From Acholeplasmataceae bacterium (lineage in GTDB: Bacteria > Bacillota_I > Bacilli_A > Acholeplasmatales > Acholeplasmataceae), in contig OY781159.1 in NCBI GenBank assembly GCA_963676765.1, forward strand, positions 848,021-912,020: 64,000 nt of DNA, written 5' to 3'. The stretch's first letter is position 1. Every line of letters starts with the position of its first letter. Of the stretch, positions 13,041 through 43,900 are shown in pieces. The notes under the pieces are model-generated. The model was given only the letters and a program-made list of their open reading frames with translations. It was not told where the DNA came from and ran no database searches. The position numbers and the translations under genes were made by a program.

Positions 13041-13068
13041 TTGACAGTATTAAAAAATTTGCTATAAT
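13041..13068 (+). promoter_or_regulatory. Sigma-A promoter
   Basis: TTGACA, 16 bp, TGc-TATAAT, directly ahead of the riboswitch. Confidence 0.8.
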
Positions 13069-13074
13069 AGGCTA

Positions 13075-13158
13075 AGGGAATGACTGTCTCCCTAAGCGAG
13101 AGCTTAAACCGCATATTGCTGATGACATCTACAACATTTTTTGTTGTAGATTTTTTTT
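13075..13158 (+). ncRNA. Fluoride (crcB) riboswitch with overlapping terminator
   Basis: AGGGAATGACTGTCTCCCT ... TAAACCGC-atatt-GCTGATGACATCTAC fits the crcB consensus; terminator ATCTACAACA-tttt-TGTTGTAGAT-T7 overlaps the aptamer 3' end. Confidence 0.85.
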
Positions 13159-13168
13159 AGGAGGATAT

Positions 13169-21875: not shown

Positions 21876-21950
21876 GGAGTTATAGCTCAGCGGGAGAGCA
21901 CCTGCTTGACGTGCAGGGGGTCGTGGGTTCAATTCCCTCTAACTCCACCA
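21876..21950 (+). tRNA. tRNA-Val (GAC)
   Basis: Acceptor GGAGTTA/TAACTCC, anticodon arm CCTGC-TTGACGT-GCAGG, T-loop TTCAATT, encoded CCA; promoter TTGCAT-16-TATAAT upstream, terminator at 21962-21986. Confidence 0.95.
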
Positions 21951-26530: not shown

Positions 26531-29116
26531 ATGAAGAAGTTTACTTGGAAACTTGCTATCACGGTCATTGTTGCATACCTACTTTTGACTTCAGTTGTAT
26601 TATTATCATATACACTGATTTCAAACGGGTTTATCTTAGGACAAGCCGAACAGGAATTAACAACAATGGGCGAAGGGATTTCAGCCTCCTTTTCGCGCCA
26701 AGTCATCTATGACTATAATCGCTATGTCGATGAATTAGAGACATTAGATGACCCATTAACAGAGTTTGTACCTGCAAACTTTTCTTTGCTTGACCAAAAT
26801 ATACTTGGTATTGGGCAAATAGTAGACCGTGATCATGTCCATATTGGCACAGAAGTTTACGCTTATGATGCTAGTTTCTATTTAAATGATTTTGAACAAA
26901 ACGTCGCCATCTATCGTTTTAGTGACGCTTTTTCTACATGGACAGAAAACACGAGCCTCATGGTATTCAACTATAATGGGTTTATTGCTTATTTTGAAGC
27001 GTCAAGTTATCTCCAATCTTTCTTTGTAGGTAATGGTTTAGTTGAAAACTATTATGTGATTGGATCAGACTCTAGATTATATTATGATAGTTCAAATGCC
27101 TATAGTTATCCAAGATTTACGACATTCTTTAGAGAAGCTGGTTATTCAGAAGATTATATTTATGATATGACAAGTATGTTAACTAATTTGGAATCTGGTG
27201 TCATTCAATCAAAATTATTTGATGATTCACAATTGATTTCGTTTACACCGATCACAATTAGTTTAAATCAAATGACGAAACCACTTTATTTTGCTACGAT
27301 GTATAATCGTGCAGATGTTGTCACGACTATTTCGACATTAAGTAATATTTTGTGGGCTGTGTTCGCGGTTATTTTTATTATTTTCTCAGTAACCATTGTT
27401 ATCATTTATCGTGTTTTGGCAGCACGTATTGAGGATATTGATAATGCAAGATTAGCATTATATTTCTCAAAACCATATATTATTAAGATTAATAAACGTG
27501 GGCGCATTAAAGGGTATAATCGCACGTTTAGAAACTTCTTAGGTGATTTCGATATTTACGATGATGTTAGAGATTTCAAAGTAAAAGGTGTCTTAAATAA
27601 AGAAAGTATTTTAGAAATGGCAAAACGTCAGATTGCTATGACGTTCTTATTTGAAATCGAAAATGATGAAAAATATATTTTATTTATTCCAACAAGAACA
27701 ACTGGTGGTATCTTATTAATTGGTAGTGATACGACTCACATTGAGGGACGTTTTGATCAATATCGTAAACTTGCTTTAATGAATAGTGTGACTAACTTAC
27801 CTAACCAAAACCAGTTAATGCAGGATTTAGAAGAATTATTAGAAGATCCAGAGCGATCAAAGTTAAATAATTCATTAATCACTTTTGACATCGTGAATTA
27901 TCCAAAAATTAAATTAATTTTGGGACAACGGTCATCTAATCGATTTTTAAAGCTTATATCAGAAATGGTTAATCGGTCATTAGATGGTTATCCATCGGTT
28001 TTATACAATATTGAAGCAGACCAGTTTGTCGTTTTACTTGAAGGCATAGAAGCATATAAATGGGTTGAACGTTGGTTAGAAAAATTGACAGCTGTTTTCG
28101 ATAAGCCTGTCACAATTGAAAGAAACTTCTTAACTGTTGATTTCAAGTTTGGTATTTTTAATATTGAGTATGATAGATACGAGATTTTAAACAACTATGT
28201 TTGTTACGACAATATGATGCTTGCACTAAAACATGCGAAAGAGTCATCAAGACATAAGAAGTTTACATATGATGTTTCTTTATCAATTATTGCATCTAGA
28301 GAACATAAGATGGAACTTGATTTAGCAAATGCTATTAAAAAGAATGAATTTAAAATGGTATTACAAGCACAATTAAATAACAATACAAATAAAATTGTTG
28401 GTTTTGAGGCACTCATTCGTTGGACAAATCCAAGTTATGCAAATGAATCACCACTTAAATTTATTAAAATGGCAGAACAAAATGGTATGATTATTGATAT
28501 TGGACGCATTGCACTTCATGAAACATTTCTGATTGCGAAAGAAATGGAACCATATCATATTACAATTTCAATTAATATTTCGCCAGTTCAAATATTACAA
28601 GCTGGTTTTGTTAATGATTTAATTGATATCTTTCAACAATATGATTTACAAAAAGGATCAATCGCCTTAGAAATCACTGAAACATTCTTGATTGATTCAT
28701 TTGAACTTGTCATCAATAAACTAAATTTATTGAAGAAACATGGTTTCCATATTCACTTGGATGATTTTGGTACTGGCTACTCTTCATTACAATATTTAAG
28801 AGATCTTCCTGTTAATGCCTTAAAAATAGATAAGGCGTTCATAGATGAAGTAGAATCAGATGCTCATGCTAGAGCAATTGTGAATATGATATCTGATCTA
28901 GCAAAAAATATTAATTTGGAAGTTATTTCTGAAGGTGTTGAATCACCAAGACAAAATTTTATTATTAAAAAAGCTGGTTGTCATATCGTTCAAGGATATC
29001 TTGTTTCTAAACCTGTTGATAAACAAGTTGCAATCGAACTCGTCAGGGCTTATAATATAGACCATACGGCAGATGTTAAATCGCTGTTGCCAAAGACGAA
29101 GGAGGGACGCAGATGA
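26531..29116 (+). CDS. Membrane sensor GGDEF(degenerate)-EAL protein; probable active c-di-GMP phosphodiesterase
   Basis: Two TM segments flanking an extracellular domain; GGDEF replaced by EADQF; EAL motifs EALIRW, EITE, DDFGTGYSS, KID, EGVE, QG intact. Confidence 0.88.
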   Translation: MKKFTWKLAITVIVAYLLLTSVVLLSYTLISNGFILGQAEQELTTMGEGISASFSRQVIYDYNRYVDELETLDDPLTEFVPANFSLLDQNILGIGQIVDRDHVHIGTEVYAYDASFYLNDFEQNVAIYRFSDAFSTWTENTSLMVFNYNGFIAYFEASSYLQSFFVGNGLVENYYVIGSDSRLYYDSSNAYSYPRFTTFFREAGYSEDYIYDMTSMLTNLESGVIQSKLFDDSQLISFTPITISLNQMTKPLYFATMYNRADVVTTISTLSNILWAVFAVIFIIFSVTIVIIYRVLAARIEDIDNARLALYFSKPYIIKINKRGRIKGYNRTFRNFLGDFDIYDDVRDFKVKGVLNKESILEMAKRQIAMTFLFEIENDEKYILFIPTRTTGGILLIGSDTTHIEGRFDQYRKLALMNSVTNLPNQNQLMQDLEELLEDPERSKLNNSLITFDIVNYPKIKLILGQRSSNRFLKLISEMVNRSLDGYPSVLYNIEADQFVVLLEGIEAYKWVERWLEKLTAVFDKPVTIERNFLTVDFKFGIFNIEYDRYEILNNYVCYDNMMLALKHAKESSRHKKFTYDVSLSIIASREHKMELDLANAIKKNEFKMVLQAQLNNNTNKIVGFEALIRWTNPSYANESPLKFIKMAEQNGMIIDIGRIALHETFLIAKEMEPYHITISINISPVQILQAGFVNDLIDIFQQYDLQKGSIALEITETFLIDSFELVINKLNLLKKHGFHIHLDDFGTGYSSLQYLRDLPVNALKIDKAFIDEVESDAHARAIVNMISDLAKNINLEVISEGVESPRQNFIIKKAGCHIVQGYLVSKPVDKQVAIELVRAYNIDHTADVKSLLPKTKEGRR

Positions 29117-30543
29117 TACCATATGTTTTGGAAATTAGTCCAGCTATTCAAATATTAATTTCTGTTGGAGTTGTTGCTATTTTAGGTGTGTTGATTTATT
29201 TTCTGGCTGTCTCATTCTTCAAAGAAAGAAGACGTTTGATTGATGAAAAGTCTTTAACAATTGAAGGCATCTTAACAAAAACAGAAATGCATTCTTTAAT
29301 TGCTAGTTATATAACAAGAGCTTCTAGAGATATGCAATTCTCACTAATATATATTGACCTAGATAAGTTTACAGATTATGAAAATGCTTTTGGTGCGATT
29401 GAATCAGAAAGAATTATTGAACGTATTGTCAGAAATATTGAATCTGTTATATCAAGAAACATCAAAATTGCACGTATGCAAAAAGATGAATTGATCTTAA
29501 CACTTCCTTATGAATATGATCGTACAGAAACGATGGAAATCGCAAGTAAGGTTAAACAGGCAATTCATAAGCAAATTAGGTTGTTCGGAGATACAACGAT
29601 TAACGCTACTGCATCAATTGCAGTTGCCTTTTATCCTGCACATGGTTCACAAGTCAAAGAATTGCTTAATTCATTGCAAATAGCTACTTACATCATAAAG
29701 AAGAATGGCGGAAATATGGTTCGCATCTACTCGGAAGAAATGAGCAGTGAAGAAGGCGAACACGTAGAGTATTATTATCAAATTAAACATGCGATTCAAC
29801 ATAAAGAGTTTCAATTGTTTTATCATCCAATAATCGATATTGAAAACAAAACGATATATGGTGCAGAAGCTTTAATTAGATGGAATCACCCAGAGCACGG
29901 TTTATTATCACCATTTAAGTTTTTAGGTATTATGGAACAATCTGGAGATATTCATTGGATTGGTTTATGGGGATTAGAAACTATAATCAAGACATATCAG
30001 GAAATTTCACAAATGTTTCCTTCCGTTGAATTCAGAATTACAATGAATTTATCACCAAAACAATTGATGAGTGAGACAATTTTCCAAGATTTCCAGAAGA
30101 TTTTAAAGAAGTATCGGATGAATGCAAAACATATCGTCTTAGAAATCGTTGAATTTACATTGTTTGATCGTCAAGATGTCATTCGTAAAAACTTAAGTCT
30201 ACTAAAACAATTAGGGTTCATGATAGCAATCGATGGATTTGGACTTGATTTCAAAACATTAGAAAAAGTTGCACAACTTAATGTTGATATTATTAAACTT
30301 GATTCAGGTTTCTTATCAGAAGAAGAGGATTTCATCAGAAACAAATTCGCTAACTTAATTGTTGATTTTGCTAAAAAACATAATTGTGATGTCGTATGTG
30401 AATTGATTGAAACAAAAGATTTAATGATTGCTGCTAGAAATTACGGTATTCATCTATTGCAAGGTTATTATTTTAGCCAACCAATCTCGGCAGAAGCATT
30501 GCGCGGTTATATTGGTGTTTCTTCATGGGATCAAAAATTATAA
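29113..30543 (+). CDS. Membrane-anchored GGDEF-EAL protein, both domains degenerate
   Basis: N-terminal TM; GGDEF to QKDEL; DDFGTGYSS to DGFGLDFKT; EGVE to ELIE. Confidence 0.85.
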   Translation: MIPYVLEISPAIQILISVGVVAILGVLIYFLAVSFFKERRRLIDEKSLTIEGILTKTEMHSLIASYITRASRDMQFSLIYIDLDKFTDYENAFGAIESERIIERIVRNIESVISRNIKIARMQKDELILTLPYEYDRTETMEIASKVKQAIHKQIRLFGDTTINATASIAVAFYPAHGSQVKELLNSLQIATYIIKKNGGNMVRIYSEEMSSEEGEHVEYYYQIKHAIQHKEFQLFYHPIIDIENKTIYGAEALIRWNHPEHGLLSPFKFLGIMEQSGDIHWIGLWGLETIIKTYQEISQMFPSVEFRITMNLSPKQLMSETIFQDFQKILKKYRMNAKHIVLEIVEFTLFDRQDVIRKNLSLLKQLGFMIAIDGFGLDFKTLEKVAQLNVDIIKLDSGFLSEEEDFIRNKFANLIVDFAKKHNCDVVCELIETKDLMIAARNYGIHLLQGYYFSQPISAEALRGYIGVSSWDQKL

Positions 30544-30689: not shown

Positions 30690-30718
30690 TTGACAAAATT
30701 TGAAAAGAAGTATAAAAT
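30690..30718 (+). promoter_or_regulatory. Sigma-A promoter of the fibre locus
   Basis: TTGACA-17-TAAAAT immediately before riboswitch 1. Confidence 0.75.
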
Positions 30719-30724
30719 CATGTT

Positions 30725-30830
30725 ACAAAGTGAAAAGGCATAGCCGAAGGAATTCGGTGACGCAAAACTAAAGGGCCTAGAACAGGTAGCCAGTTACCAT
30801 TTGATTAATCAAAGTGGTGCTGGTGTTTTT
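30725..30830 (+). ncRNA. c-di-GMP-I (GEMM) riboswitch 1 with terminator
   Basis: GGCATAG-CCGAA-GGAA-TTCGG-TGACGCAAAACTAAAGGGCCT...AGGTAGCCAGTTAC; terminator CCAGTTACCA...TGGTGCTGG-TGTTTTT. Confidence 0.9.
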
Positions 30831-30845
30831 ATTTACCAGAATTGA

Positions 30846-30946
30846 ACATGTATAAAGGCAAAACCGAAGGAATTCGGTGACGCAAAACTAAAGGGCCTAG
30901 AACAGGTAGCCAGTTGTCATGGGAAATCATGACTGCTGGCTTTTTG
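30846..30946 (+). ncRNA. c-di-GMP-I (GEMM) riboswitch 2 with terminator
   Basis: Bases 30864-30915 identical to 30744-30795; terminator GCCAGTTGTCATG-ggaaat-CATGACTGCTGGC-T5. Confidence 0.9.
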
Positions 30947-30981
30947 TATATATATTGTTTTAAAAGAAATTTGACATAAAA

Positions 30982-31085
30982 ACATGTGAAAAGCAAACCC
31001 GGAGAAATCCGGTGACGCAAAGCTATAGGGCCTAAAATAGGTAGCCAGTTGCCATCAAGCGTATTTGATGACGGCTGGCTTTATT
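30982..31085 (+). ncRNA. GEMM-I riboswitch 3 (A20 variant) with terminator
   Basis: AGCAAAC-CCGGA-GAAA-TCCGG-TGACGCAAAGCTATAGGGCCT...AGGTAGCCAGTTGC; terminator AGCCAGTTGCCATCAAG...TTTGATGACGGCTGGCT-TTATT. Confidence 0.88.
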
Positions 31086-31103
31086 GTTATAAGGAGAGAA
31101 TCC

Positions 31104-31826
31104 ATGAAAAGACTTTCAACCGTTACTGCAGCTAAAAAATTAACAAAAAGAAATCGCATATTTACAATCGGAATTTTAATTAGTGGTATTTTATCAGCTG
31201 TTCTTGGTGTGGTTACATTTTATGGTCAACAAGCCGGAAACTTCGTCATGAATGTCGATTATGAAGCTTACAACAGAGGAATTGTGATTGCTGATAATAG
31301 AACAATGGCTGATGCTGGTCCACAATTGATTAGTGGTTCCGTAGAAGATGCTAAAGATGTCACTTACCGTTGGTTAGACATTCAAAGTGCAGTTGAAACA
31401 GATGGAAATTTTTACGATCCTGATCTCACGTATATGGCGTACACATTCTATTTGCAAAATGCTGGTACAGAAGTAACTGATGTCATATACAGTATGAGAA
31501 TTACAGATGTTTATAAAAATTTAGATGAAGCAATAAGAGTTATTTTAATTGATGATGGCATTGAAACCATTTATCAAAAACAAGATGAAGCTGATGAATT
31601 TGGTGTTCTTCCAACTTATCCAGTTTCGATGCCAGATGCTGAAATGTTTCTAGATGATGATACAGTATTTAGAAACGTTGTTGAAAGTTTTGGACCAAAT
31701 GAAATTAGAAAGTTCACAGTAATTGTTTGGCTAGAAGGGGAGGACCCTGATACAAACGATGATATATTAGGTGGCTTAATTAAATTTAGAATGACATTTT
31801 CAATTGATGGAGATATCATTCAATGA
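31104..31826 (+). CDS. Exported pilin/TasA-like protein A (hypothetical)
   Basis: Basic N-terminus plus hydrophobic segment, acidic beta-rich body, C-terminal VWLEGEDPD; ATG after AAGGAG. Confidence 0.55.
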   Translation: MKRLSTVTAAKKLTKRNRIFTIGILISGILSAVLGVVTFYGQQAGNFVMNVDYEAYNRGIVIADNRTMADAGPQLISGSVEDAKDVTYRWLDIQSAVETDGNFYDPDLTYMAYTFYLQNAGTEVTDVIYSMRITDVYKNLDEAIRVILIDDGIETIYQKQDEADEFGVLPTYPVSMPDAEMFLDDDTVFRNVVESFGPNEIRKFTVIVWLEGEDPDTNDDILGGLIKFRMTFSIDGDIIQ

Positions 31827-32797
31827 GAAAAGTAAAATATTCGATTATCTTACTGCTCATCATGGCAATCTTATTAGGAACTGTGACTTATGCTTGGATC
31901 AGCTTATCGTTTATTAATAATATTGAAGGTATGCGTTTAACAGCAACCACTGGTGATGAATTGCAAATATCATTGGATGCTGAGCATTATAGTAGTGAAA
32001 TTTCAAATGAACAGTTAGAAGAAATCTTTGAAGATATTCGATTAACTGATGTTACAAGTATTGATGGTATTAACTTTCATACAGGCGGTTTAAGAGAAGT
32101 TGGTATTGCTGTTCCTAATCAAGATTACTTATCATTTGATCTTTATTTCCAAACAGTAGAACCGGTACATACAGTTTATTTGGCAAACAATGTATCAAAC
32201 GAAGTAAATTATGATACAGCTTCAACTGGCACATATGTTGTGTCACAAGGTGTTGAATGGACGACAAATATTGATTTTCAAAATGGTCCATCAATTGACG
32301 ATATCATTCGCGCTGGGACAAGTGACACGTATTATGGAAAACATGCAATTCGCATGAGTTTCCAAGAACTAAAAGATGAAGAAAATGTATTAGATGTTAG
32401 AGAGCAAAGTGAATTAAACACACTCATCTTCGATCCTTCAGAGGATCCTAGTAGAGGATATGGGCTCAGATATGGTGCGTATAGTTACTTCATACAAAGA
32501 ACTAGATATTATATTAGAACACCATTAGAGGAACCTAATACAATATATCACTTATCAGATGTTGATCCTACAAATCCTTATGTAACTTATGATGAAGAAT
32601 CGCTATTACTCACACTACAAGAAACAAACTTCCAAGATGGCGAAGGAAAGACATACTATCGTGGACAACTTAAAGTGAACATATGGGTTGAAGGTTGGGA
32701 TGTAGATGCGTTTGATGCCATTGATAAAGACTTAATTAGAGCGCAACTACAGTTTAAATTATTACAGTATTTAGAAGAATCACCAGTGTTGAATTAG
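31823..32797 (+). CDS. SipW-class signal peptide protein B
   Basis: Signal ends LGTVTYAW; C-terminal IWVEGWD. Confidence 0.65.
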   Translation: MRKVKYSIILLLIMAILLGTVTYAWISLSFINNIEGMRLTATTGDELQISLDAEHYSSEISNEQLEEIFEDIRLTDVTSIDGINFHTGGLREVGIAVPNQDYLSFDLYFQTVEPVHTVYLANNVSNEVNYDTASTGTYVVSQGVEWTTNIDFQNGPSIDDIIRAGTSDTYYGKHAIRMSFQELKDEENVLDVREQSELNTLIFDPSEDPSRGYGLRYGAYSYFIQRTRYYIRTPLEEPNTIYHLSDVDPTNPYVTYDEESLLLTLQETNFQDGEGKTYYRGQLKVNIWVEGWDVDAFDAIDKDLIRAQLQFKLLQYLEESPVLN

Positions 32798-32854
32798 CTT
32801 AACGAGAGTTAATTAAAATAAAAAAAGATTAAAAGATTAAAGGAGACTAGAAAA

Positions 32855-33760
32855 ATGTCAAAAATCACAAGAAAACTCGTATTATCAATTTTAACGGTTG
32901 TCTTAACAGTGGCAGCACTTGGAACGACAACATTTGCGTGGTTCACACTTACAAACACTGCAACAGTTCAATCATTTGATGCAGAAATCGTTGCCGATAC
33001 CGGTATCGAAATTGCTTTGGATAACACAGGAAATCCATTGCTATATGATTGGAAAACAACAATTACGACACAAGACGTCTATGATTATATGACGGCTGTG
33101 TATGGGGAAGATTCATTTAGATTTAATAATGTTACTACGACAAACGGTACATCATTTGCTGATCTAGAAGGTACAGTTACAACAGCTGGTTATTTAGAAT
33201 TACCAATTCATTTCCGTTCACCAGATGCTACTGAAATCTTCATGGATGCATTCACATTGACTTCAACACCATTCTCATGGACATCATCAAATGAAACATT
33301 TGTTAACGAACATGGTGATACAATTTCTGCTGGCGACTCATTTAACGTTAATGCTGCGGATGCATTCCGTATGTCAGTTACAGGTACAATTTCATCAGCT
33401 TCAGTAACAACAGCTTATGAAAATCCAACAAGTGGTACAAACTACAATTTACCACAAGATTCAAATACAACACCGCTTGATTTAATAGCTAGTGATGGAT
33501 CAGTTAGTTTCTATGAAGCAGTTACTGCTACGGAACCTAATGGTGTAACATCAGTTAGTGTTGTAAATACAATTACTGTTATTGATGGTGATGCAAATAT
33601 TCTTAAAGTTGCGGATTTAGCTGGTGGACAAAGTGGTACTGCTGGTGCAGAATACTTTGGTTCAATTACAATTAGAATTTGGTTTGAAGGTTGGGATCCT
33701 AATGCTTATAATGCTTTATTAGGTAGAATCGTATCATCAACACTTCACTTTACGGCTTAA
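32855..33760 (+). CDS. SipW-class signal peptide protein C, candidate major fibre subunit
   Basis: Signal ends LGTTTFAWF; Thr/Ser/Asp-rich; C-terminal IWFEGWD; followed by a stable RNA structure. Confidence 0.7.
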   Translation: MSKITRKLVLSILTVVLTVAALGTTTFAWFTLTNTATVQSFDAEIVADTGIEIALDNTGNPLLYDWKTTITTQDVYDYMTAVYGEDSFRFNNVTTTNGTSFADLEGTVTTAGYLELPIHFRSPDATEIFMDAFTLTSTPFSWTSSNETFVNEHGDTISAGDSFNVNAADAFRMSVTGTISSASVTTAYENPTSGTNYNLPQDSNTTPLDLIASDGSVSFYEAVTATEPNGVTSVSVVNTITVIDGDANILKVADLAGGQSGTAGAEYFGSITIRIWFEGWDPNAYNALLGRIVSSTLHFTA

Positions 33761-33781
33761 TATAATATATTAATTATGATT

Positions 33782-33843
33782 CTAGTCTGGTAAGTGTATC
33801 TGTTTATCAGATATGCTTACCAATCCTTATTGGATTAGACTAG
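33782..33843 (+). other. Intergenic three-way-junction RNA structure without U-tract
   Basis: CTAGTCT/AGACTAG encloses a 14-bp hairpin (33789-33821) and a 5-bp hairpin (33822-33836). Confidence 0.6.
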
Positions 33844-33868
33844 TTACGACTTAATAAAGGAGTTACGT

Positions 33869-34573
33869 ATGAAAGAAAACAATTGGAATGCTAAACGCAT
33901 TTTAAAATTAATTGCTAACGTTATATTTTATGCTGTTATTGTATTTCTCATGATTTTTTCAATAGCAAATATTAGAGTACAACGTGAAGATAACTTAGCT
34001 AATGTTTTCGGTGTAGGTATGCTTTCTGTACAATCTGACTCAATGAAAGGCACGTTTGAAACCGGAGATCTATTATTCGTTAGCATGTTAGGTGAAGATG
34101 ATTTTGCTAATTTGGAAATTGGTGATGTTGTCACATACTACGATACATCTTTAGAAGCTTTTAATACGCACAGAATTGTTGCGATTGACCGAGTGGAAAG
34201 AATGTTAACAACACAAGCTGATTATAACTATGAAAGTCCAGGAGATCCAACATTTGCGGATAAGTCTGTTAGCTTTGATAGTGTAATTGCAACTTATAAT
34301 GGTTCTATGATTGCTGGTTTAGGTAATTCACTTGACTACTTACAAACACCAGTCGGATTTGCTTTATTCATTATTTTGCCAGTACTTTTAGTGCTTATTT
34401 TTGAAGGTGTCTTATTAGCTAGACATGTCATGGCATTAAACCGTGAAAAACTAGAAGTAAAATATGCAGAAGAACGTGAATTGGCAGCACAAAGCATTGA
34501 ATCAGAACGTGAACGTATGCGTGCTGAAATTCTTGCTGAAATGAAGAAAGAAAAAGCTATACATGCAAATTAA
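33869..34573 (+). CDS. sipW: Signal peptidase I, SipW/archaeal (S26B) type
   Basis: SVQSDSM (Ser), GDLL, THRIV (His rather than Lys), second TM and charged tail. Confidence 0.85.
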   Translation: MKENNWNAKRILKLIANVIFYAVIVFLMIFSIANIRVQREDNLANVFGVGMLSVQSDSMKGTFETGDLLFVSMLGEDDFANLEIGDVVTYYDTSLEAFNTHRIVAIDRVERMLTTQADYNYESPGDPTFADKSVSFDSVIATYNGSMIAGLGNSLDYLQTPVGFALFIILPVLLVLIFEGVLLARHVMALNREKLEVKYAEERELAAQSIESERERMRAEILAEMKKEKAIHAN

Positions 34574-34592: not shown

Positions 34593-36131
34593 ATGGTAGA
34601 GTTCGCTCGTTACTATATTGACCTGTTACGAAACTTTTTCATTAATGTCGGTGAATTCTTTAGTGCTGTATTTCAAGCATTCGCCGATTTCTTTGTTCGT
34701 AATGTGGGTGAATATTTTAATAGTTTTATTACTGCAACAGCACAATTTGGGCTACTTGATTGGGTCATGGCATTCGTCGTCATTGTCATCAATTTGGTCT
34801 TTTTCGTGTTTTTGATATTAAAACTCTATCAGTGGATTTCTAAATACGCGCGCTTCGTCGGGCGCGAGATAGAAAAAGACGAATTACTTGAAGAAATTGC
34901 GTTCTTAAATCAGAAAACAGTCGAACTTGTGGATGAACGTAATAAGATCTTAGCTTTAAAAGTTTCTAACTTAGGATTAAGTCCTGATGAAGAGTTAAAA
35001 GCTGAAGAAAAGATTTTGGAAGAAGAAATTAAGGAGAAAGAAGATTCTCGCTTCATCAAACTTATCGCAGTAGATGAAGAGTATAAGAACCGTGTTACAC
35101 AAATTCATATGCAAGAAGAAGACATGATTAATTTGAACGAACTTGTTACAAGGTTCATTAATTTTGCAGCAAACCGTTTAGGTTTGTTTTATAACAGACA
35201 GATCATCTCAGCATTCTTTGCTGGTATGGCTTCCTCTAAAACGATGATTTTAGAAGGGATATCTGGTACTGGTAAAACATCACTGCCTTATGCAATGGGT
35301 AAATTCTTCAACAATGACTCCCATATTATTGCCGTGCAGCCTTCATGGCGAGATCGTGCAGAAATGATGGGTTATTTAAACGAATTTACGAAACGCTTTA
35401 ATGAAACGGAGTTCCTAGAAGCGATTTATGAAACAACATATCATAACGATATAAATATCATCGTGTTAGATGAAATGAACTTGGCACGTGTTGAGTATTA
35501 TTTTGCAGAATTCTTATCACTCTTGGAAATGCCTGATAAAGATAAATGGTTAGTGGATGTTGTCCCTGATGAACTACCTTCTGATCCAGCACATCTTCAT
35601 CGTGGGAAATTATTGTTGCCGCAAAACGTCTGGTTTGTCGGTACAGCCAATAAAGATGATTCAACCTTTACCATTACCGATAAAGTATATGACCGTGCAA
35701 CTTCTATCGTTATTAATACAAAGGCAGATTACATTGATGCTCCTGAAACAAAAAGTATTACGATGAGTAATGACTACTTACAAGAATTATTTAGAGCTGC
35801 ATCAGATGAACATCAATTATCATTAAAGGCATTAAAAAATCTTGAACGCTTAGATAAATTCATTACTGAAAACTTTAAAGTCACATTTGGTAACCGTATC
35901 ATGAAACAAATTCGTGCATTCGTACCTGTATTTGTCGCATGTGGTGGTAGTGAAAATGAAGCGTTAGATTATATGGTAGCAAGAAAAATATTCAGAAAGT
36001 TTGAAGGATTGAACTTACCGTTCTTACAAAAAGAAATAAATGACTTATCAGCATTATTAGAACGATTATTTGGGAAGAACTCATTTGCTGAATGTCAAGA
36101 TTTCTTAACATCGATTAAGAAAACATTTTAA
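34593..36131 (+). CDS. Membrane-anchored McrB-like AAA+ NTPase
   Basis: Hydrophobic segment near aa 55-80; Walker A GISGTGKT, Walker B LDEMNLARVEYYF, GTANKDDST (NxxD), KVYDRA. Confidence 0.8.
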   Translation: MVEFARYYIDLLRNFFINVGEFFSAVFQAFADFFVRNVGEYFNSFITATAQFGLLDWVMAFVVIVINLVFFVFLILKLYQWISKYARFVGREIEKDELLEEIAFLNQKTVELVDERNKILALKVSNLGLSPDEELKAEEKILEEEIKEKEDSRFIKLIAVDEEYKNRVTQIHMQEEDMINLNELVTRFINFAANRLGLFYNRQIISAFFAGMASSKTMILEGISGTGKTSLPYAMGKFFNNDSHIIAVQPSWRDRAEMMGYLNEFTKRFNETEFLEAIYETTYHNDINIIVLDEMNLARVEYYFAEFLSLLEMPDKDKWLVDVVPDELPSDPAHLHRGKLLLPQNVWFVGTANKDDSTFTITDKVYDRATSIVINTKADYIDAPETKSITMSNDYLQELFRAASDEHQLSLKALKNLERLDKFITENFKVTFGNRIMKQIRAFVPVFVACGGSENEALDYMVARKIFRKFEGLNLPFLQKEINDLSALLERLFGKNSFAECQDFLTSIKKTF

Positions 36132-36145
36132 CCATTAAGGAGTAT

Positions 36146-38008
36146 GTGATGAAACATTTAAAAGAATTAAAAGAATTTCATCAAGCCATCACAAATGCTT
36201 ATTACGGCATTGAAATGGAACAATCATTTCCAAATCATTTCTATGACGCTCTTCTTTCTGGTGAAAACGAAATGTATCAAAAATCAATTACTGAAGTGAA
36301 ATCATTTCATGTTGATTGGATACCAACATTAGAATCATACTTACCATCGATTAATAAAATTATTATGGATCCGAAGTCTGGATTGCGTTATGAACAACCG
36401 GTTGTCGCTATCGAAAAAGCAAAAAAAGTGAATGCACAATCGATTCGTCATCTATCTATGCACTCTCATCTGGTTAAAGAAATCAGAGGTGATATGGTTA
36501 TTCCTAAAAAGATTATGACGACACAAGCAGAAATAGATTATGGTATTTATGAAAACCGATTTATGAAAACACTTATTCAGCGCTTGTTTGATTTTGTATT
36601 TCGCAGATACAATCTCATTAAAGCAAACATTGAATCGTTTAATAAAAGGCATTTTGATCTCAAAAGTAAATTTCAAATGCAAGATACGAATATTGATTTA
36701 GATATTCATGTTGCATTTACAGAACAGGCTGATAATGAAGCAGTCATCAAAAAAAACAATGAGATGCTACATCGGATTGAAGGACTGATGAAGCAAATCA
36801 ATGGCTTTATGTCGACAGTGTTTTGGGAAGAGATTAAAAATGTTAAACCAGTACAACCTCCAATTATGCAAACATCTATTCTCTTAAAGAATATTGACTA
36901 TAAGAACTGCTATACACTATGGTTATACCTAGATCGCTATGGCAACTTAGATTTTGATAATGACGTGAAAGAGAAGAATTTAACATTCGATCAATATTAT
37001 ACGAAAAATGTTTACCAGATTGCACTACAAACAGTCTCAATGATTTATGGTAATCAACTTGCTTTAGAAGATCATTATCAATATTTAAATGAAAAGGAAT
37101 ATCGTAGAAGAAGTCCTAAAATTATTAACAAGACATTAAATGAATTGTTAACACAAGATCAAGTTGAACAAATGGAAGACTTCACCTTAAATGAATATTT
37201 CTTAGAGCAAAGTAAAAAACAGTTTCAACAATTACTAGAAGATAAGCAAGAAGAATCATCAAGTTATGATGTTGCATTAAGAAGAGCACTTCGCGACACC
37301 ATACAAATTACAAACGCACTATTTGAATCGTATTTTGATTTAAATGATAAACCTGAAGGCGAAGACTTCATGTTTAGATCGCTTGTTAAAGAATCAACAT
37401 TTGATCAACTACAAACTGCCAGGCAAAGAGCACGTATTATGAAGATTGTTAGGGAAACAAAAGAAGTCGATTATAATAATATGATGCGTTTAGAAAAAAG
37501 AATTCTAAAAGAAATTGATTACTTAAACAAACAATATCTTGAAGAAGAGAAGGATAAAATTGAAAAAGAAGCTAAGCAAAAAGGTTTAGCAGAGAAGCTT
37601 AAACTTGAACGTCGTAATGCAGAAAAAGATCAAGCAAGAATTACACGTTATCTAAATTACGTTTCTAATCAACATAAAAAATTAGAGGCACAACATCGTA
37701 TAACAACTGAAAAAATTAGAAAAACTAGAGTTAAAGTTAAGGTCTCTGAAAAACAAATTATTGCAGCTGAAAAACGTAAGGCTAAGGCAGCGTATCATGA
37801 AGCATTAAAACGCATCCAAGAGCAGTATAAAACAGATAAAACAAAACTCCAAACACAACTTAAAAAACAACAAGAAAAGGATAAAAAGCGTTTAGAAACA
37901 CAATTGATTAATATTGAAAAAGCTTCTCGAAAACGTATTGATACAGAAAAGAAAAAGATAGAAAAACGTTATGCAAAAAAACTTAAAAAAGCGAGTAAAA
38001 ATGCGTAA
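36146..38008 (+). CDS. DUF2357-like protein with long C-terminal coiled coil; no visible nuclease
   Basis: DYGIYENRF motif; last ~170 aa Lys/Glu-rich helical; no PD-(D/E)xK or DAKY motif seen. Confidence 0.65.
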   Translation: MMKHLKELKEFHQAITNAYYGIEMEQSFPNHFYDALLSGENEMYQKSITEVKSFHVDWIPTLESYLPSINKIIMDPKSGLRYEQPVVAIEKAKKVNAQSIRHLSMHSHLVKEIRGDMVIPKKIMTTQAEIDYGIYENRFMKTLIQRLFDFVFRRYNLIKANIESFNKRHFDLKSKFQMQDTNIDLDIHVAFTEQADNEAVIKKNNEMLHRIEGLMKQINGFMSTVFWEEIKNVKPVQPPIMQTSILLKNIDYKNCYTLWLYLDRYGNLDFDNDVKEKNLTFDQYYTKNVYQIALQTVSMIYGNQLALEDHYQYLNEKEYRRRSPKIINKTLNELLTQDQVEQMEDFTLNEYFLEQSKKQFQQLLEDKQEESSSYDVALRRALRDTIQITNALFESYFDLNDKPEGEDFMFRSLVKESTFDQLQTARQRARIMKIVRETKEVDYNNMMRLEKRILKEIDYLNKQYLEEEKDKIEKEAKQKGLAEKLKLERRNAEKDQARITRYLNYVSNQHKKLEAQHRITTEKIRKTRVKVKVSEKQIIAAEKRKAKAAYHEALKRIQEQYKTDKTKLQTQLKKQQEKDKKRLETQLINIEKASRKRIDTEKKKIEKRYAKKLKKASKNA

Positions 38009-38028: not shown

Positions 38029-38793
38029 ATGCATAAGTTAAAGATTAAAGAACATCGTAAATTAACGATCGTTTCACTTCTATATGTATTGTTTGCAGTA
38101 TTTATGTTAACGGTCGTAACTTATGCATGGTTTACGTTAACTGACCAGAATAGTGCTCATTTAATTGAAGCTGTTTCCGGTGTTGAAGCCGAGTATGAAT
38201 ATTATGTGTATAATGATGCATCTCACACAGGATCATTAGAACCAACACTTATTGATAATGTATCCACAACAGGCGAAAATTTAGCATATGAATATATTCC
38301 TAATCCAACCGTTGCTCATTTAATTGATGGTTATATTGCACCTGGAGAGATATTCTCGTTCGCGATTAAGATTATAAATGTTGGTACGGATATTGGTTAT
38401 TTAAATTTAAGTTTAACAAATGTATTCTCTGAAGGATTTGAACGAGAAGAAAATCGTATTCAAAATGCGTTGTATTATGAAATTACAAATATTGTTCAAA
38501 CAGATGGAGTAACGGAATCAAGTGACATTAAAGATGATGCACCTACTGTCTATTGGCAAGATTATTTAGATGATGTCGATCATAGGAGTTATCCAATGGT
38601 TAAAAATGTGCCATTAGGAGCTACACCTACAAATAGACAAACAATTATATTTTTTGATATCGTCTTTGATCCAACTGTATATGGGTTTGATATAGAAGGA
38701 GAACCTTATACTAACTCAAATATTTTCATGGGTCAAAAAGTTACCATTAATCAAATATATATGACTATTTCGCCTAATCCGGAGGTTATATGA
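38029..38793 (+). CDS. SipW-class signal peptide protein D
   Basis: Signal ends LTVVTYAWF; acidic beta-rich body. Confidence 0.65.
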   Translation: MHKLKIKEHRKLTIVSLLYVLFAVFMLTVVTYAWFTLTDQNSAHLIEAVSGVEAEYEYYVYNDASHTGSLEPTLIDNVSTTGENLAYEYIPNPTVAHLIDGYIAPGEIFSFAIKIINVGTDIGYLNLSLTNVFSEGFEREENRIQNALYYEITNIVQTDGVTESSDIKDDAPTVYWQDYLDDVDHRSYPMVKNVPLGATPTNRQTIIFFDIVFDPTVYGFDIEGEPYTNSNIFMGQKVTINQIYMTISPNPEVI

Positions 38794-39491
38794 AAAATGT
38801 TGCATCTAAAATCCTAACTGGATTTGCTATATTAATCTTCATATTAGCCATTGGGATTATGATTGCTGGAACAATCGCGATGCGTCGTAATGAACCAGTC
38901 TTCATCTTTGGTTATGCGTTAGCTGTCGTCCCAACTGAATCCATGGTGGGTGATCAAGATGATTCTCTTGATATTAATGATCTAGTTATCATTAAGCGAA
39001 TTGATATCAGTGAAGTGAATGTGGATCAACATCCAGTCATTGTTTATCAAGGGGTTGGTAATAACGGGTCCGATATTTTAATTATTCACCGTGTTGTTGA
39101 AGAGACTGAAGAGGGGTTAGTGACACAAGGCGATAATACGGAAACAAATCCGATATCTGACCAAGCAGCAGGAATACAGGATTATATAACAGCAGATAAT
39201 TTTCAAGGCATATATGCCTTTAAAATAACATTTTTAAAACCCATAGCAAATATAATGACAGATTCAAGAACAACTATATTTGCGATTATCGTTGTAATAT
39301 TAGTCATGATATTATTAACAGAACTTATTCATATTGTTAAAACAATGCATGAAAAAAAGAAAGATGACATGGCAAAACAGCATGAATCCTATATTGCATT
39401 AATGAAAGTGAAGCATCGTAGGGAAATAAAAGATGAACTTAAAAAAGAGTATATGGCAAACTTAGAGCAATCTAAGGACGCAAAGCTATAG
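38790..39491 (+). CDS. sipW: Second SipW-type signal peptidase I
   Basis: VVPTESM (Ser), IIHRVV (His), TQGDN, second TM and charged tail. Confidence 0.82.
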   Translation: MKNVASKILTGFAILIFILAIGIMIAGTIAMRRNEPVFIFGYALAVVPTESMVGDQDDSLDINDLVIIKRIDISEVNVDQHPVIVYQGVGNNGSDILIIHRVVEETEEGLVTQGDNTETNPISDQAAGIQDYITADNFQGIYAFKITFLKPIANIMTDSRTTIFAIIVVILVMILLTELIHIVKTMHEKKKDDMAKQHESYIALMKVKHRREIKDELKKEYMANLEQSKDAKL

Positions 39492-39542
39492 GGCCTTAAA
39501 GAGGTAGCCAGTTGCACCAATGATTTGGGCAGCTGGCTTTTA
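39445..39542 (+). ncRNA. c-di-GMP-I riboswitch 4 overlapping the 3' end of the second sipW CDS, with terminator
   Basis: GGCAAAC-TTAGA-GCAA-TCTAAG-GACGCAAAGCTATAGGGCCT...AGGTAGCCAGTTGC; terminator AGCCAGTTGC...GCAGCTGGCT-TTT. Confidence 0.88.
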
Positions 39543-39564: not shown

Positions 39565-40224
39565 ATGAACAGAAAAGCAGTAGTTATCATGTTAATCTTA
39601 GCCATCTTTACACTTGTTAGTAGTGTAAGTTATGCATGGTTTACATACGTTGAGCAAAAGAGTTTAGCGTCTTTTGAAGCAGGTGTTTTATCTGTTTACA
39701 CAACAATGAATGATGAACCATTTTCAACAACTTACAATATCACAGATATTGCATATGTTGATTTTGAAAATGATGTCATCAATGATGTATCACAGACATT
39801 TGATTTAATGGCTTCTTCAAATGTCATTGACATTCAGTTAGACCCTCAATCACCACTTGCAGTGCATGAGATCACAATTAGTGAACCTACAAACCAAGAA
39901 GGATTACTCATATTGTTGATCAATGAAGGCATAAACTTAGAATCTGGAGCTCCAATCACATCTAATTACCACGATCTGATTGAGACGATTACAACCGGTT
40001 CAAGTACTGCTGAAGAGATGAGACTCGCGATTGATTTATATAATCAATCTGTACTAGATGATATTCATCAAACAGTTATGAGTACATCAGACACATTAAG
40101 CTTACAAGTGGTGGTATGGGGTGATTATAATGCATTAAGTGATCCAACTAATTATCTTGATTTAACTTTCACCTTAACAATTACAATTGATACAATTAAT
40201 GCAAAAGGAGCTGTTTCTCCATGA
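39565..40224 (+). CDS. SipW-class signal peptide protein E
   Basis: Signal ends SSVSYAWF; ATG at 39565 after GAGGA. Confidence 0.65.
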   Translation: MNRKAVVIMLILAIFTLVSSVSYAWFTYVEQKSLASFEAGVLSVYTTMNDEPFSTTYNITDIAYVDFENDVINDVSQTFDLMASSNVIDIQLDPQSPLAVHEITISEPTNQEGLLILLINEGINLESGAPITSNYHDLIETITTGSSTAEEMRLAIDLYNQSVLDDIHQTVMSTSDTLSLQVVVWGDYNALSDPTNYLDLTFTLTITIDTINAKGAVSP

Positions 40225-40901
40225 GATTAATTGATCGTATATTACTTATTGGTATGAGTATTTTACTTGTCTTAATGATTAGTGTGATTGTGACTTATGC
40301 TTACTTCCAAGTTTCAGAAACGCATGGCATTACCATTGATACTGGAGAATTTGAAGTTGAGTTAGTTGTTAAATTTAATGGAGTTACTGTTGATGTTGAT
40401 AGTAACTATTATGATAAAAATCGTGGGAAGATTATTGCTAATGCTTCTGATCCATTAAGCGATAATTATATTGAAAACATGACAATTGATCTAGTAGTTA
40501 CACCAGAAGTAGCCGCACGTATGCGGTTCAAAATTCAACAAGAATGGGAATTGCGTCGTTATTATTTAGACCAAGATACAGAAAATCCAATTGATCCGGT
40601 ATTTGAATCAATTTATCATCCTCAAAAGACGATAGCATATTACCCATATTCACTCATGATGTGGGCACCTGACTTTCCATATAGTTATGAACAAGATGGC
40701 ACTGTATATTACATGGATATTATACCCAATAGTGGTGTAGTTACGATTCCGTTAATTCATGGCGGATCACCATATACAGTACGAACAAATAGTGTGTTAT
40801 TTGAAGAGTGTTATGTGTATTTTGATATTTATATCGATCTTGTACAGGCAAACAGATTTGCTGAAGTATGGGGAATCGATCCCAATTATTTTAATGAGTA
40901 A
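40221..40901 (+). CDS. SipW-class signal peptide protein F
   Basis: Signal ends VIVTYAYF. Confidence 0.62.
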   Translation: MRLIDRILLIGMSILLVLMISVIVTYAYFQVSETHGITIDTGEFEVELVVKFNGVTVDVDSNYYDKNRGKIIANASDPLSDNYIENMTIDLVVTPEVAARMRFKIQQEWELRRYYLDQDTENPIDPVFESIYHPQKTIAYYPYSLMMWAPDFPYSYEQDGTVYYMDIIPNSGVVTIPLIHGGSPYTVRTNSVLFEECYVYFDIYIDLVQANRFAEVWGIDPNYFNE

Positions 40902-40916
40902 ATAAGGAAGGTATAT

Positions 40917-43900
40917 ATGAAACGTGTGATATCCAAAGTAACAATTATTATCTTAATCGTTACAACAACGCTTTTTATAAGCTCTTTTTTATCACGTGAT
41001 TTTGTATATGCAGATGATTATCAAGCATCATCATCTTGGACTGGTGCAGATATTGGTGTAACTCCTTTAAATGGTATAACATTTGATAGTGATTATAGAC
41101 AGTTTTCTACGGTTATTGATGATTATACGTTAGTTGATACAAATAAGACTTATGTGCTTGAAACGGCATATGATTTATACATGTTTTCAGAACTCGCAAG
41201 AGGAACTCAAAGTACGTTATATCTAAGTCTAGATTATGTGCTTGGTACAGACATAGATTACTTTGATGCATTACAAGAAAACATTGCATATTTGTTTACA
41301 CCAATTGGCTTTAATACACCATTTACTGGTACATTTGATGGCCAAGGATATGAAATAACGAATCTCATTTTTAGATCCGTTAATTCAACTGAAGATTATG
41401 ATACATATATGCCCGGTTTAATTTATTATTCAATGTTTTCAAGAATATCTGAGACAGCTATTATTGAAAATCTTGGTTTAATTAATCCACTCATTGTGCA
41501 AGCGATTGAACAAGGAGCTATGACGCATGTATCTGTATTAGTTGGTGAAAATAGAGGACTAGTTCAAAATGTTTATTATCTTGATAATAGAGGGGATTCT
41601 GCTGGTATTAATGCAGAAGGTAATTTCTTTATATCAGGTCTAGTGTCAAGAAATATAGGAACCATAACGAATGCATTTGTGTCAACGCCACATGTTAAAA
41701 GTTTAGCGGTTATTGATAATTTAGCATCTGCAGTATTAGTCTATTCAAATACTGGCACAATCTCACAAACATATTATGATGAAGATGTTTATGGGGATGA
41801 AGGAACAACCAGTATTTCAAATGGTGATGGTCTTTCAACAAGTGAATTCCAAAATGCGAGTAATTTTAATAGCGATTGGTATTTTAGTGATTCTTATAGT
41901 GGTCTAACAACTGACCCAGAACTTATAAGTCAAACAATCATTGATAGTACATATCCAACACTGCAAGGTGTTGCAGTAAATCAAAGGGTTATTGAAATTA
42001 ATGACGCTGTTGATTTTGTTTATATGAATGAATTATTAAATGTATCTGGTCTATTTAGAGCAAGTGATTATATAATTACAAGTGATATCGATATGAACCA
42101 AGTCTCACGCAAGGCTTATAAAGCTGCTAGTGTGGGTTTTTCTGGTTCTCTATCTAGTACGCTGATTAGTGCAGGGTCAACGCTTTACACGCATACGCCA
42201 GCGCAAGGTGGAACATATCAGTATCATACAATTATTGGACTAAAAATAAGTGATACGACATTGATTGGGAATTATGCTAGTTATGCACTATTTAGTTCTT
42301 TGTTTGGTAAGGTTACGCATCTTAATTTTTTGGATTATACAATTATTCCTGAAGATATTGAAATGACTGCAAATAGAGATCGCATTTTAATTGGTGGTAT
42401 TGCAGCTGCAAGTGCAAATGGTGCATTAATCGATGATGTGCATATTGATTTAACTATTGATATTCCAGAAACAACCACAGAACTTGGACAAGTTTTAGTT
42501 GGTGGTATGGTAGCTGAAGGATCTATTCAATTAGCAAATTCAAGTAGTACTGGTTTCATTGATGAATTAAGTTTGAATTATAATGCAAGATCAGATGAAT
42601 CTGTTGTTGCGGGTATGATTGGACACGCTTTTAATGTCACACTGGATCATGTATTAAATAATATGACCGTTGAAGGTCTAGGTTATCAAGATATACCTTC
42701 TGGGACAACTTATTATGGGGGTATGATTGGTTTTGGTAGTGCCATGGCAATGCATTATGTTGTAAATGTAGCTGATATCAATACACATACAAATGGTGCC
42801 ATAAATACTTCATATATTGGTGGTATTGTTGGCTATCAAACTGATTTGCTAGATCAGACGACATATATTTATAACAGCGGTAATGTTGCAACGACAATTA
42901 ATAGAGCACAGGATTATCACATGGCTGGTTATGGCACAATTGAAGATTTAGAAGATAATTTGAATATGGTATCTCTAACGAATAGTGGTGCTATTACTGT
43001 GCATCTTTCAGATACTATAACAACTAGTGATTTAATCAACATGGATGGTTATGTTTCTGGTGTTTTAATTAGTTATGCAAGTGGTACAATTACAGGTCTA
43101 TTCCAAACGAGAAATCAAGTGATTGATTTATCGGGTTTATCACATTTTGCAGGAACACTACTCGCACTTGATCAGACTGATTTAACAGTTGCTCAAGCTT
43201 ATCAAGAAGGTAATTTAACATTTGAAACGACAACTGATTTGACAAAATCAACAATGCATATCGCTTTGAATGTATTTGGAACAAATCTAAGTCAAACTCA
43301 TTTACGTCAAGAGGGTAACGCTAACTTTCATTTAACTGAAGATTCCAATGCTACTGTAACAGCTGGATCATTTTATATATATGGTGTGATTGAAGAAGTC
43401 AGTCAAGATTTTTATGCAACTGATCTATTCAATGGTGGAGACATTACAATTGATGTGGACAATGGTGTAGATCTTTTATATGATTTGTATATTGGTGGTA
43501 TTGGTTTTCACAATAGAAATACGAATTTATATGAAGAACATAATATAGATCCTGAATCTATTGATATTGAAACTGTTTCAGGATCCCTAGATACTGCACT
43601 TAATAGTGGATCAATTACAGTTCGTGGTGATTTAGATGGGCATGTGAAAGTAGCCGGAATTTTAGTGATGAATGCATCGATTGTCACAAATGCGATTAAT
43701 TTAGGTAATGTCGATGTAAGAAGTGATGCTCAAACAACAAATGATGCAATCGAGGCTGCAGGAATTGTCTACCTAATGCTTGGTGAATATGCGCAAATTA
43801 GAGATGCTGCTAACAATGGTGACATCATTGCAGTATCAGCAACATCAATTGGTTATGCACATGCTGCAGGGATTGCAGTAAGAAATGAATTAAATGAAGA

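Follow-up and report, generated by a model that had tools for sequence, protein, structure and literature searches.

Results

Three tandem c-di-GMP-I aptamers lie in one leader

The window analysed here is the whole stretch of 64,000 nucleotides (nt) taken from contig OY781159.1 of an Acholeplasmataceae bacterium (assembly GCA_963676765.1). On its + strand, between two GGDEF-EAL genes and an operon of exported-protein genes, lies a single leader that carries three riboswitch aptamers in tandem, and this leader is our subject. All three aptamers are full-length matches to RF01051, the c-di-GMP-I family (class I for cyclic diguanosine monophosphate, or GEMM-I), in an Rfam cmscan search at the gathering threshold (35 bits), and each covers model positions 1-87. 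The units of the leader, with terminators taken from minimum free energy (MFE) folds, are as follows.

30690..30718, +: predicted sigma-70-like promoter, TTGACA-17-TAAAAT, 11/12 in a consensus scan, a few bases 5' of aptamer 1
30727..30801, +: aptamer 1, Rfam 55.3 bits, family covariance model R1 84.8 bits; contacts G20=30737, A47=30764, C92=30797 (canonical G/C signature)
30789..30834, +: terminator 1, hairpin 30789-30824 followed by GUUUUUAUUU
30847..30921, +: aptamer 2, Rfam 57.6 bits, R1 88.7 bits; contacts G20=30857, A47=30884, U92=30917 (T30917 in the DNA; G/U signature)
30908..30945, +: terminator 2, hairpin AGCCAGUUGUCAUG-GGAAAU-CAUGACUGCUGGCU (30908-30941) followed by UUUU
30982..31056, +: aptamer 3, Rfam 60.6 bits, R1 90.0 bits; contacts A20=30992, A47=31019, C92=31052 (GEMM-Ib-type A/C signature)
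31043..31090, +: terminator 3, hairpin 31043-31080 followed by the U-rich tail UUAUUGUUAU

A sequence-only reading of this DNA had claimed that the three copies carry three different ligand-contact signatures, G20/C92, G20/U92 and A20/C92, and that claim proved exact to the base. In the cmscan alignment model position 11, which is unpaired and immediately followed by the G-C/C-G pairs closing onto GACGC, is G30737, G30857 and A30992, and model position 83 is C30797, T30917 and C31052. We equated these two positions with G20 and C92 of the Vibrio Vc2 aptamer through its published pairings, which are G21-C46, C22-G45, G14-C93, C13-G94, G88-C51 and U90-A, with C92 paired to one ligand guanine (PMC11705072), a bulge contact C44-G83 (PMC3764141), and G20 in contact with the other ligand guanine (PMC6140456). 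In 3/3 window copies base 20 stands immediately 5' of the G21/C22 equivalents, and base 92 is flanked by nt 91 and by the C at the top of helix P1 (an AUG/CAU-type P1). The junction from P1 to position 20 has 4 nt in copy 1, 6 nt in copy 2 and 5 nt in copy 3 (Vc2 C15-G19 has 5), and in most relatives it has the Vc2 length or one nucleotide more. Aptamer 2, whose junction J1/2 is one base longer, carries the clade-typical 3' motif GUUGUCAU. A register in which C93 instead of U92 would read the ligand was rejected because the G14-C93 top pair of P1 and the spacings on both strands match Vc2. An independent covariance model made from 25 Rfam-confirmed relatives gives the identical register, with no shift that would turn all copies into G20/C92, and covariation backs the helices (98% of cells paired, 177 double-change cells, equalled in 0/500 shuffles).

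Apart from these two positions the core varies little along the array. The elements GC...GACGC-AAA, the GGAA/GAAA tetraloops and the GGUAG bulge are found in 3/3 copies, as is the conserved GEMM-I core, that is G21-C46/C22-G45, an intercalating A47, a GNRA tetraloop capping the first hairpin and a bulged G that pairs with C44. The canonical pair G20 and C92 is present in copy 1 alone, copy 2 having U92 and copy 3 having A20; the combination that identifies GEMM-Ib by sequence, A20 with C92 in a GEMM-I fold, is present in copy 3 and absent from copies 1 and 2. The fold is that of the GEMM-I family, yet the canonical binding-site signature is not universal across the array. Since the order G/C - G/U - A/C recurs in two assemblies from other samples, which are also the two closest relatives (L082 and L086/L087), these differences are not sequencing noise.

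Each aptamer shares its 3' strand with a terminator

The ligand-free fold of the leader has three strong hairpins with a U-rich tract after each. Every terminator borrows its 5' arm from the aptamer before it, of which it takes the 3' strand (AGCCAGUU plus nt 91-96), so that aptamer and terminator are mutually exclusive, and the leader is therefore built as three transcriptional ON switches in series. All three aptamer-plus-terminator units stand between the promoter-like site at 30690-30718 and the start codon at 31104. A hairpin with a U run also lies 3' of 99/101 aptamers of the family tallied below.

The second contact base takes part in these hairpins in a copy-specific way. In terminator 1, whose 5' arm is the 3' strand of aptamer 1 (GCCAGUUACCAUUU), C92 pairs with G, and in the MFE fold of terminator 2 U92 pairs with A. 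In terminator 3 C92 is unpaired and faces A31071, a C.A mismatch that is common to the last copy of L002, L082, L083, L086, L088 and L091.

U at position 92 is the usual state in homologous leaders

With a covariance-model search we surveyed 80 genome loci with a homolog of the operon's first gene, together with nine metagenomic loci from close relatives. Arrays of one to four aptamers lie directly 5' of the homolog in 46/80 genome loci (34/80 have no match), and nearly all of the array-bearing loci are of Acholeplasmatales or Anaeroplasmatales type. Among the 101 non-redundant aptamers from homologous leaders, positions 20/92 are G/U in 74/101, G/C in 16/101, A/C in 10/101, C/C in 1/101 and A/U in 0/101. 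The typical unit of the family reads 5'-AAAUGU-AAAA-G-GC...GUUG-U-CAUU-3', and U92 pairs with an A of the terminator in 71/74 cases. Judged from these sequences, U92 is the ancestral and dominant state of the leader family; as U92 is the norm, copy 2 of the window is ordinary and its unusual, derived copies are the two with C92.

C92 is found mainly within the sublineage of the window, in which the downstream protein is at least 76% identical. Leaders whose downstream protein is at most 57% identical have nearly all U92, the exceptions being four single-aptamer loci from distant Bacillota (L059, L067, L076 and L081). Canonical G/C aptamers do occur at other genes of the same genomes, as in a fourth window copy (below) and at position 752 of L060. 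Both weakening changes together, A20 with U92, are present in no copy. We rejected this lack as a statistical argument because it is weak, A20 having arisen only once or twice in the sampled tree.

The cultured relative Peloplasma aerotolerans (L026) has G/U doublets. The locus L016 (5501-5952; Acholeplasmataceae metagenome-assembled genome (MAG) SMBSF03) has four tandem aptamers before the homologous gene, and in the literature searched we found no arrays of more than three copies catalogued for the c-di-GMP-I class.

First and last copies keep their signatures in close relatives

We compared the window with seven independent close relatives, eight leaders in all. Copy 1 is G20/C92 in 8/8 and the last copy is A20/C92 in 8/8, and these copy-specific signatures have been kept between leaders whose downstream proteins share no more than 76-82% identity. 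At the middle copy the window, L082 and L086/87 have G/U, L002 and L084/85 have A/C, and L083 and L088/89 have G/C; L091 lacks this copy. The core elements GCAAA, GACGCAAA, GGGCCU and GGUAGCCAGUU are kept in nearly all copies (the window exception is GCAUA in copy 1); the P2 helix shows compensatory changes, and elsewhere in the core there are few single-sequence changes.

The copies also bear signs of sequence exchange. Copies 1 and 2 of the window match at every position of a 52-nt stretch (30744-30795 versus 30864-30915) and differ at nt 91-92, in P1 and in the terminator; the identity suggests recent gene conversion. P2 of window copy 3 is a mosaic: it differs from that in copy 3 of every relative and looks like the P2 of copy 2 in L082 and L088, and in some relatives the middle copy resembles a duplicate of the last. 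The C92 of copy 1 pairs with a G in its terminator, and that of the last copy stands opposite an unpaired A in 7/8 leaders; the latter arrangement is likely left over from a U92-A pair in the ancestor. These patterns make it likely that the array was originally G/U throughout, with copy 1 changing to G/C and the last copy to A/C.

The leader stands between probable phosphodiesterase genes and an exported-protein module

The host has a genome of about 1.5 Mb, and the homologs of the first operon protein come nearly all from Acholeplasmataceae, Mariniplasma and Peloplasma MAGs. The neighbouring features on which the interpretation draws are these.

26531..30543, +: two GGDEF-EAL genes (861 aa and 476 aa) directly 5' of the leader; Pfam EAL 2.6e-61 and 2.1e-56
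31091..31098, +: ribosome-binding site AAGGAGAG, ahead of the first operon open reading frame (ORF; start 31104)
31104..34573, +: regulated operon, three exported-protein genes and a SipW-like signal peptidase
31104-31826, 31823-32797 and 32855-33760, +: the exported-protein genes, each with an N-terminal transmembrane/SipW-type signal
33869-34573, +: the SipW-like signal peptidase (NCBIfam NF046067 1.3e-20, TIGR02228 2.6e-17)
39445..39519, +: aptamer of a fourth c-di-GMP-I riboswitch (to 39542 with its terminator), G20/C92, Rfam 59.8 bits and fold

Both GGDEF-EAL proteins have an EALIR motif and a weak Pfam match to GGDEF that is without the GG[DE]EF motif, and with an intact EAL and a degenerate GGDEF domain they are probably c-di-GMP phosphodiesterases. 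EAL phosphodiesterases are a c-di-GMP-specific class, and Acholeplasma laidlawii has 14 GGDEF/EAL proteins (PMC2408644, the Galperin commentary). Two GGDEF-EAL genes also precede the leader in those relatives whose contigs reach upstream.

Searches of the exported proteins against Pfam, NCBIfam and PDB sequences yielded no family besides SipW. In the AlphaFold model of the first of them a transmembrane helix is followed by a beta-sandwich (predicted local distance difference test score, pLDDT, 84); we claim no specific family for it, as its PDB neighbours are generic beta-sandwich or carbohydrate-binding modules with TM-scores below 0.3. On signal type and model the cargo is best described as an exported surface or matrix module, and such modules are the usual targets of c-di-GMP ON switches. 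A homolog of the first operon protein (P0010), 72% identical, is filed in EukProt under the eukaryote Anaeramoba ignava; the entry is most likely a bacterial symbiont or contaminant.

The fourth riboswitch has its own terminator (39506-39538 plus UUUU) and stands ahead of 39565-48404. A second ORF for a SipW-like peptidase (38790-39491) extends with its 3' end into this riboswitch, 3' of which are two small exported-protein genes and a 2495-aa ORF (40917-48404) without a Pfam family. An McrBC-like pair of the same strand (AAA_5 and DUF2357 proteins, 34593-38008) stands between the two modules of exported-protein genes that are under riboswitch control. Elsewhere the window has a fluoride riboswitch (RF01734, 36.6 bits) with a Na+/H+ exchanger-family gene, not crcB or eriC, directly 3' of it (13067-14368), a tRNA gene (21876-21947, +) and a tmRNA gene (56386-56729, -). 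The rest is housekeeping genes (glucose-6-phosphate dehydrogenase, biotin carboxylase, ketoacyl synthase, MatE, TrkH and ABC transporters), content consistent with a free-living Acholeplasma-type genome.

Cyclases near related leaders have the canonical Asp

A20 is the mark of riboswitches for 3',3'-cyclic GMP-AMP (cGAMP). The sequence-only reading had called for a search for Hypr-GGDEF or CD-NTase synthases, and the window yielded neither: a six-frame scan of the 64 kb found no GG[DE]EF motif, and Pfam found no cGAMP or c-di-GMP synthase and no nucleotidyltransferase-type cyclase in the 36 of 49 ORFs of at least 150 aa that were searched. The loci fetched from relatives hold three intact GGDEF-motif proteins, all with the canonical Asp (GHxxGD) and none with the Hypr Ser. 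Two of these, in L053 and L069, are Pfam-confirmed cyclases that adjoin G/U leaders, and the gene order there (L053 155-5351, L069 83-5706) is cyclase, phosphodiesterase, phosphodiesterase, G/U array, operon, the L069 cyclase being a PAS-GGDEF protein. By its gene content this arrangement is a compact cluster of synthase, phosphodiesterases, sensor and output. Inspection of GG[DE]EF motifs found no cGAMP synthase in about 1 Mb of fetched loci, an inspection that detects Hypr-type GGDEF enzymes and not DncV/CD-NTase enzymes.

Published ligand binding by the contact variants

The affinities quoted below are second-hand, taken from later publications in which the original measurements are cited. 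The background of the sequence-only reading holds, namely that G20 and C92 contact the ligand guanines, that A20 marks GEMM-Ib and that C92U alters specificity. Wild-type Vc2 binds c-di-GMP at ~11 pM and cGAMP at ~10 uM, and Vc2 G20A, by way of a protonated adenine, binds them at 53 nM and 120 nM; in Clostridium beijerinckii the natural A20 aptamer Cbe 1-2 has an affinity of 30 nM for c-di-GMP and holds cGAMP less tightly (PMC6140456). The A variant of Desulfobacca gains cGAMP affinity with a slight loss for c-di-GMP (PMC9481103). A20 is the defining contact of cGAMP riboswitches and is necessary, not sufficient, for cGAMP selectivity (PMC6140456, PMC9481103). At the other position C is otherwise highly conserved in the c-di-GMP-I family (PMC3764141), and the Rfam RF01051 consensus has an uppercase C at position 92. 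Vc2 C92U has a lowered, not abolished, c-di-GMP response in vivo (bioRxiv 617340), and the G20A/C92U double mutant binds c-di-GMP at 4.9 uM versus 11 pM for the wild type (PMC9049102). From these published mutants it follows that each single variant should still be a competent c-di-GMP sensor and that the double variant, unseen here, should not.

Discussion

A probable c-di-GMP-driven triple ON switch

The folds, the register, the overlap of aptamers with terminators and the pattern of conservation are observed features of this leader. We infer the identity of the ligand, the affinities and the read-through behaviour of the three units, and the account that we think probably right, with appreciable reserve, is that c-di-GMP drives the leader as a pseudo-cooperative triple ON switch whose gates are tuned contact variants. 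One 5' untranslated region would hold three complete transcriptional ON riboswitches of GEMM-I fold in series. When no ligand is present each unit would fold an intrinsic terminator with the 3' strand of P3 plus nt 91-96 as its 5' arm; bound ligand would lock that strand in the aptamer, the terminator would be blocked and RNA polymerase could proceed to the next gate, so that only transcripts past all three gates would reach the operon. The most likely ligand of all gates is c-di-GMP, at a level that would be set in part by the two upstream EAL phosphodiesterases, and we favour it because the neighbours are EAL enzymes and the three intact GGDEF proteins are canonical GHxxGD enzymes. From this context and the published mutants it is likely that all three units answer the same ligand. 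The G20/C92 copy 1 would be a tight and strictly c-di-GMP-specific gatekeeper, the ancestral form G20/U92 would read the beta guanine by a G.U wobble, and the A20/C92 last copy would read the alpha guanine via a protonated adenine with the Watson-Crick contact at 92 restored. Copies 2 and 3 would also take 3',3'-cGAMP if it were made, while copy 1 would still require c-di-GMP. Such an array should give a low-leak, somewhat steeper, threshold-type induction of the surface or matrix operon at high c-di-GMP.

Several observations weigh against this account. A simple product model gives a 10-90% range (L90/L10) of 81-fold for a single gate, 32-fold for three equal gates and 53-70-fold for graded gates; graded gates are less steep, and sharpening alone therefore fails to explain why the differences are conserved. 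Leak reduction, threshold setting or the matching of aptamer to terminator are likely reasons for them. Where a base reads its ligand by Watson-Crick pairing, C to U is the classic way to switch specificity from G to A. U92 has been kept across a broad clade beside G/C aptamers in the same genomes, which hints at a function beyond drift. Vc2 C92U is reported to permit 3',3'-cGAMP binding (PMC12032345, citing Shanahan 2011), and the absence of A/U copies rests on few independent evolutionary events. Finally, there is a weak promoter-like match (9/12) at 30929-30956, between copies 2 and 3; matches in this region are no commoner than in shuffles.

Alternative readings

The sequence-only reading had proposed either an RNA AND gate for c-di-GMP and cGAMP or a graded-affinity series; the graded series fits better, and the AND gate found no positive support. 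In a two-input AND gate copy 1 would take only c-di-GMP, the last copy would be selective for cGAMP, copy 2 would accept either, and the operon would need both messengers. We consider this rather unlikely. Its appeal is that A20 defines cGAMP riboswitches, that G/C in the first copy and A/C in the last have been kept in 8 close leaders despite substitutions and apparent gene conversion, and that another reason for heterogeneity is attractive when graded gates forfeit so much steepness; it would also occupy a plausible unfilled slot, as the known tandem logic gates in Table 2 of PMC9481103 include no c-di-GMP-I/c-AMP-GMP pair. However, A20 alone is not selective: A20 aptamers from outside Geobacter, natural or engineered, take both ligands, and c-di-GMP binding stays strong in Vc2 G20A, in Cbe 1-2 and in the A variant of Desulfobacca. 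The window has neither a GG[DE]EF motif nor, in the larger ORFs searched, a nucleotidyltransferase-type cyclase, the intact cyclases that adjoin related leaders carry the canonical Asp, and the neighbours are EAL enzymes and not HD-GYP cGAMP phosphodiesterases. The swapping of the middle copy among G/U, A/C and G/C in relatives is also easier to understand if there is one ligand. A related proposal, that G20/U92 and A20/C92 copies read 3',3'-cGAMP in opposite orientations and that the leader thus demands c-di-GMP at copy 1 and cGAMP at copies 2 and 3, seems to us unlikely.

It is decidedly unlikely, in our estimate, that the G20/U92 aptamers form a class of distinct specificity, for flipped 3',3'-cGAMP or another G/A dinucleotide, and that the window leader mixes three ligand classes. 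In the flipped mode G20 would read a G at the alpha site and U92 would form a Watson-Crick pair with an A at the beta site. The 74/101 aptamers of this kind in Acholeplasmatales- and Anaeroplasmatales-type genomes, with C92 aptamers coexisting, the strong conservation of C92 in the rest of the family and the reported cGAMP binding of Vc2 C92U all speak for such a class; but a G.U wobble retains c-di-GMP binding and Vc2 C92U responds in vivo, in L053 and L069 pure G/U arrays stand in synteny with genes for canonical cyclases and for EAL proteins, the motif inspection for Hypr-type synthases was negative, and the A partner in the terminator (71/74) can account in part for the conserved U92. Another reading is neutral drift or partial decay, with one or more copies weakened or dead, maintained by duplication and gene conversion, and serving as constitutive terminators or as leaky spacers. 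It would account for the evident recombination among copies (the 52-nt identity of copies 1 and 2, the mosaic P2 of copy 3 and the duplicate-like middle copies) and for a copy number of one to four among relatives. We hold it to be very improbable, since nearly all copies keep the core nucleotides, with compensatory changes in P2, every copy retains a matched terminator, copy-specific signatures persist in 8 leaders and one dead aptamer among ON switches in series would shut the operon off for good. For the first two of these reasons the idea of a ghost or degenerate aptamer was rejected.

Relation to known riboswitches

Tandem and triple c-di-GMP-I arrays are already known, as are A20 variants. 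A survey of tandem c-di-GMP-I riboswitches counted 347 doublets and 12 triplets (PMC9481103, Sherlock et al. 2022), and Bc3-5 of Bacillus thuringiensis is a validated triple-tandem c-di-GMP-I ON switch (PMC4759541, Zhou et al. 2016). Like Bc3-5, the window leader has three complete class I aptamers in one 5' untranslated region ahead of cell-surface protein genes, each paired with a terminator of its own in which the 3' strand of P3/P1 and the ligand-contact C take part, and with ON logic, and a more stringent, more digital response would be expected of it. Unlike Bc3-5, whose copies are described as sharing Vc2-like sites, the window copies differ at both base-reading positions in a copy-specific and conserved way, and they stand in a wall-less Acholeplasmataceae host, before SipW-dependent exported-protein cargo, with 1-4 copies in relatives.

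Copy 3 has the fold and the A20 and C92 of the GEMM-Ib riboswitches of Geobacter (Gs1761, Gm0970; Kellenberger 2015 and Nelson 2015, as summarised in PMC6140456 and PMC8835794), among which ON switches with terminators are common, as in the window leader. It differs from them in that its cGAMP selectivity is putative, that its neighbours are c-di-GMP turnover genes and not exoelectrogenesis genes, and that no Hypr GGDEF was found in the window or the fetched loci; the Firmicute A20 example Cbe 1-2 binds both ligands (PMC6140456). The window copies are natural counterparts of both single Vc2 mutants, G20A and C92U, and never of the double (PDB 3MUM, 3MUR, 3MUT, 3UD3; Smith 2010 and Shanahan 2011, via PMC6140456, PMC9049102 and PMC12032345), as biochemistry predicts for a c-di-GMP sensor. 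Unlike the laboratory mutants, U92 is the wild type of this clade and co-varies with an A of the expression platform. The clusters of Desulfobacca acetoxidans (PMC9481103 Fig. 3) likewise bring together, in one region of the genome, highly similar GEMM-I aptamers that differ only at the G/A contact, but there the G and A variants are in separate clusters with adenosylcobalamin switches, whereas in the window the variants are serial in one leader. In the literature searched we did not find described a natural U92 clade, arrays of G/C, G/U and A/C in conserved order, or the pairing of this riboswitch with this operon in Acholeplasmataceae; a search on Acholeplasma and c-di-GMP returned only the note in PMC2408644 on the GGDEF/EAL genes of A. 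laidlawii.

Significance

Tandem c-di-GMP-I arrays are common and have been thought merely to sharpen the response, whereas here the ligand-reading bases vary by position and that variation is conserved, within a whole clade of wall-less Bacilli that has U at the usual C92. If the unlikely opposite-orientation reading of cGAMP were true, this would be the first c-di-GMP/cGAMP AND gate, the U92 clade would be a new riboswitch specificity class, and there would be cGAMP-based gene regulation in Acholeplasma-like bacteria. The natural series of G/C, G/U and A/C parallels the classic Vc2 specificity mutants inside real expression platforms, which makes the tuning of threshold, leak and possibly ligand logic by an array testable, and Peloplasma aerotolerans renders such experiments feasible. 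For the organisms themselves, the leader family would be a case of a Mollicutes-like lineage that uses riboswitches to put a SipW-dependent surface or matrix operon under c-di-GMP control.

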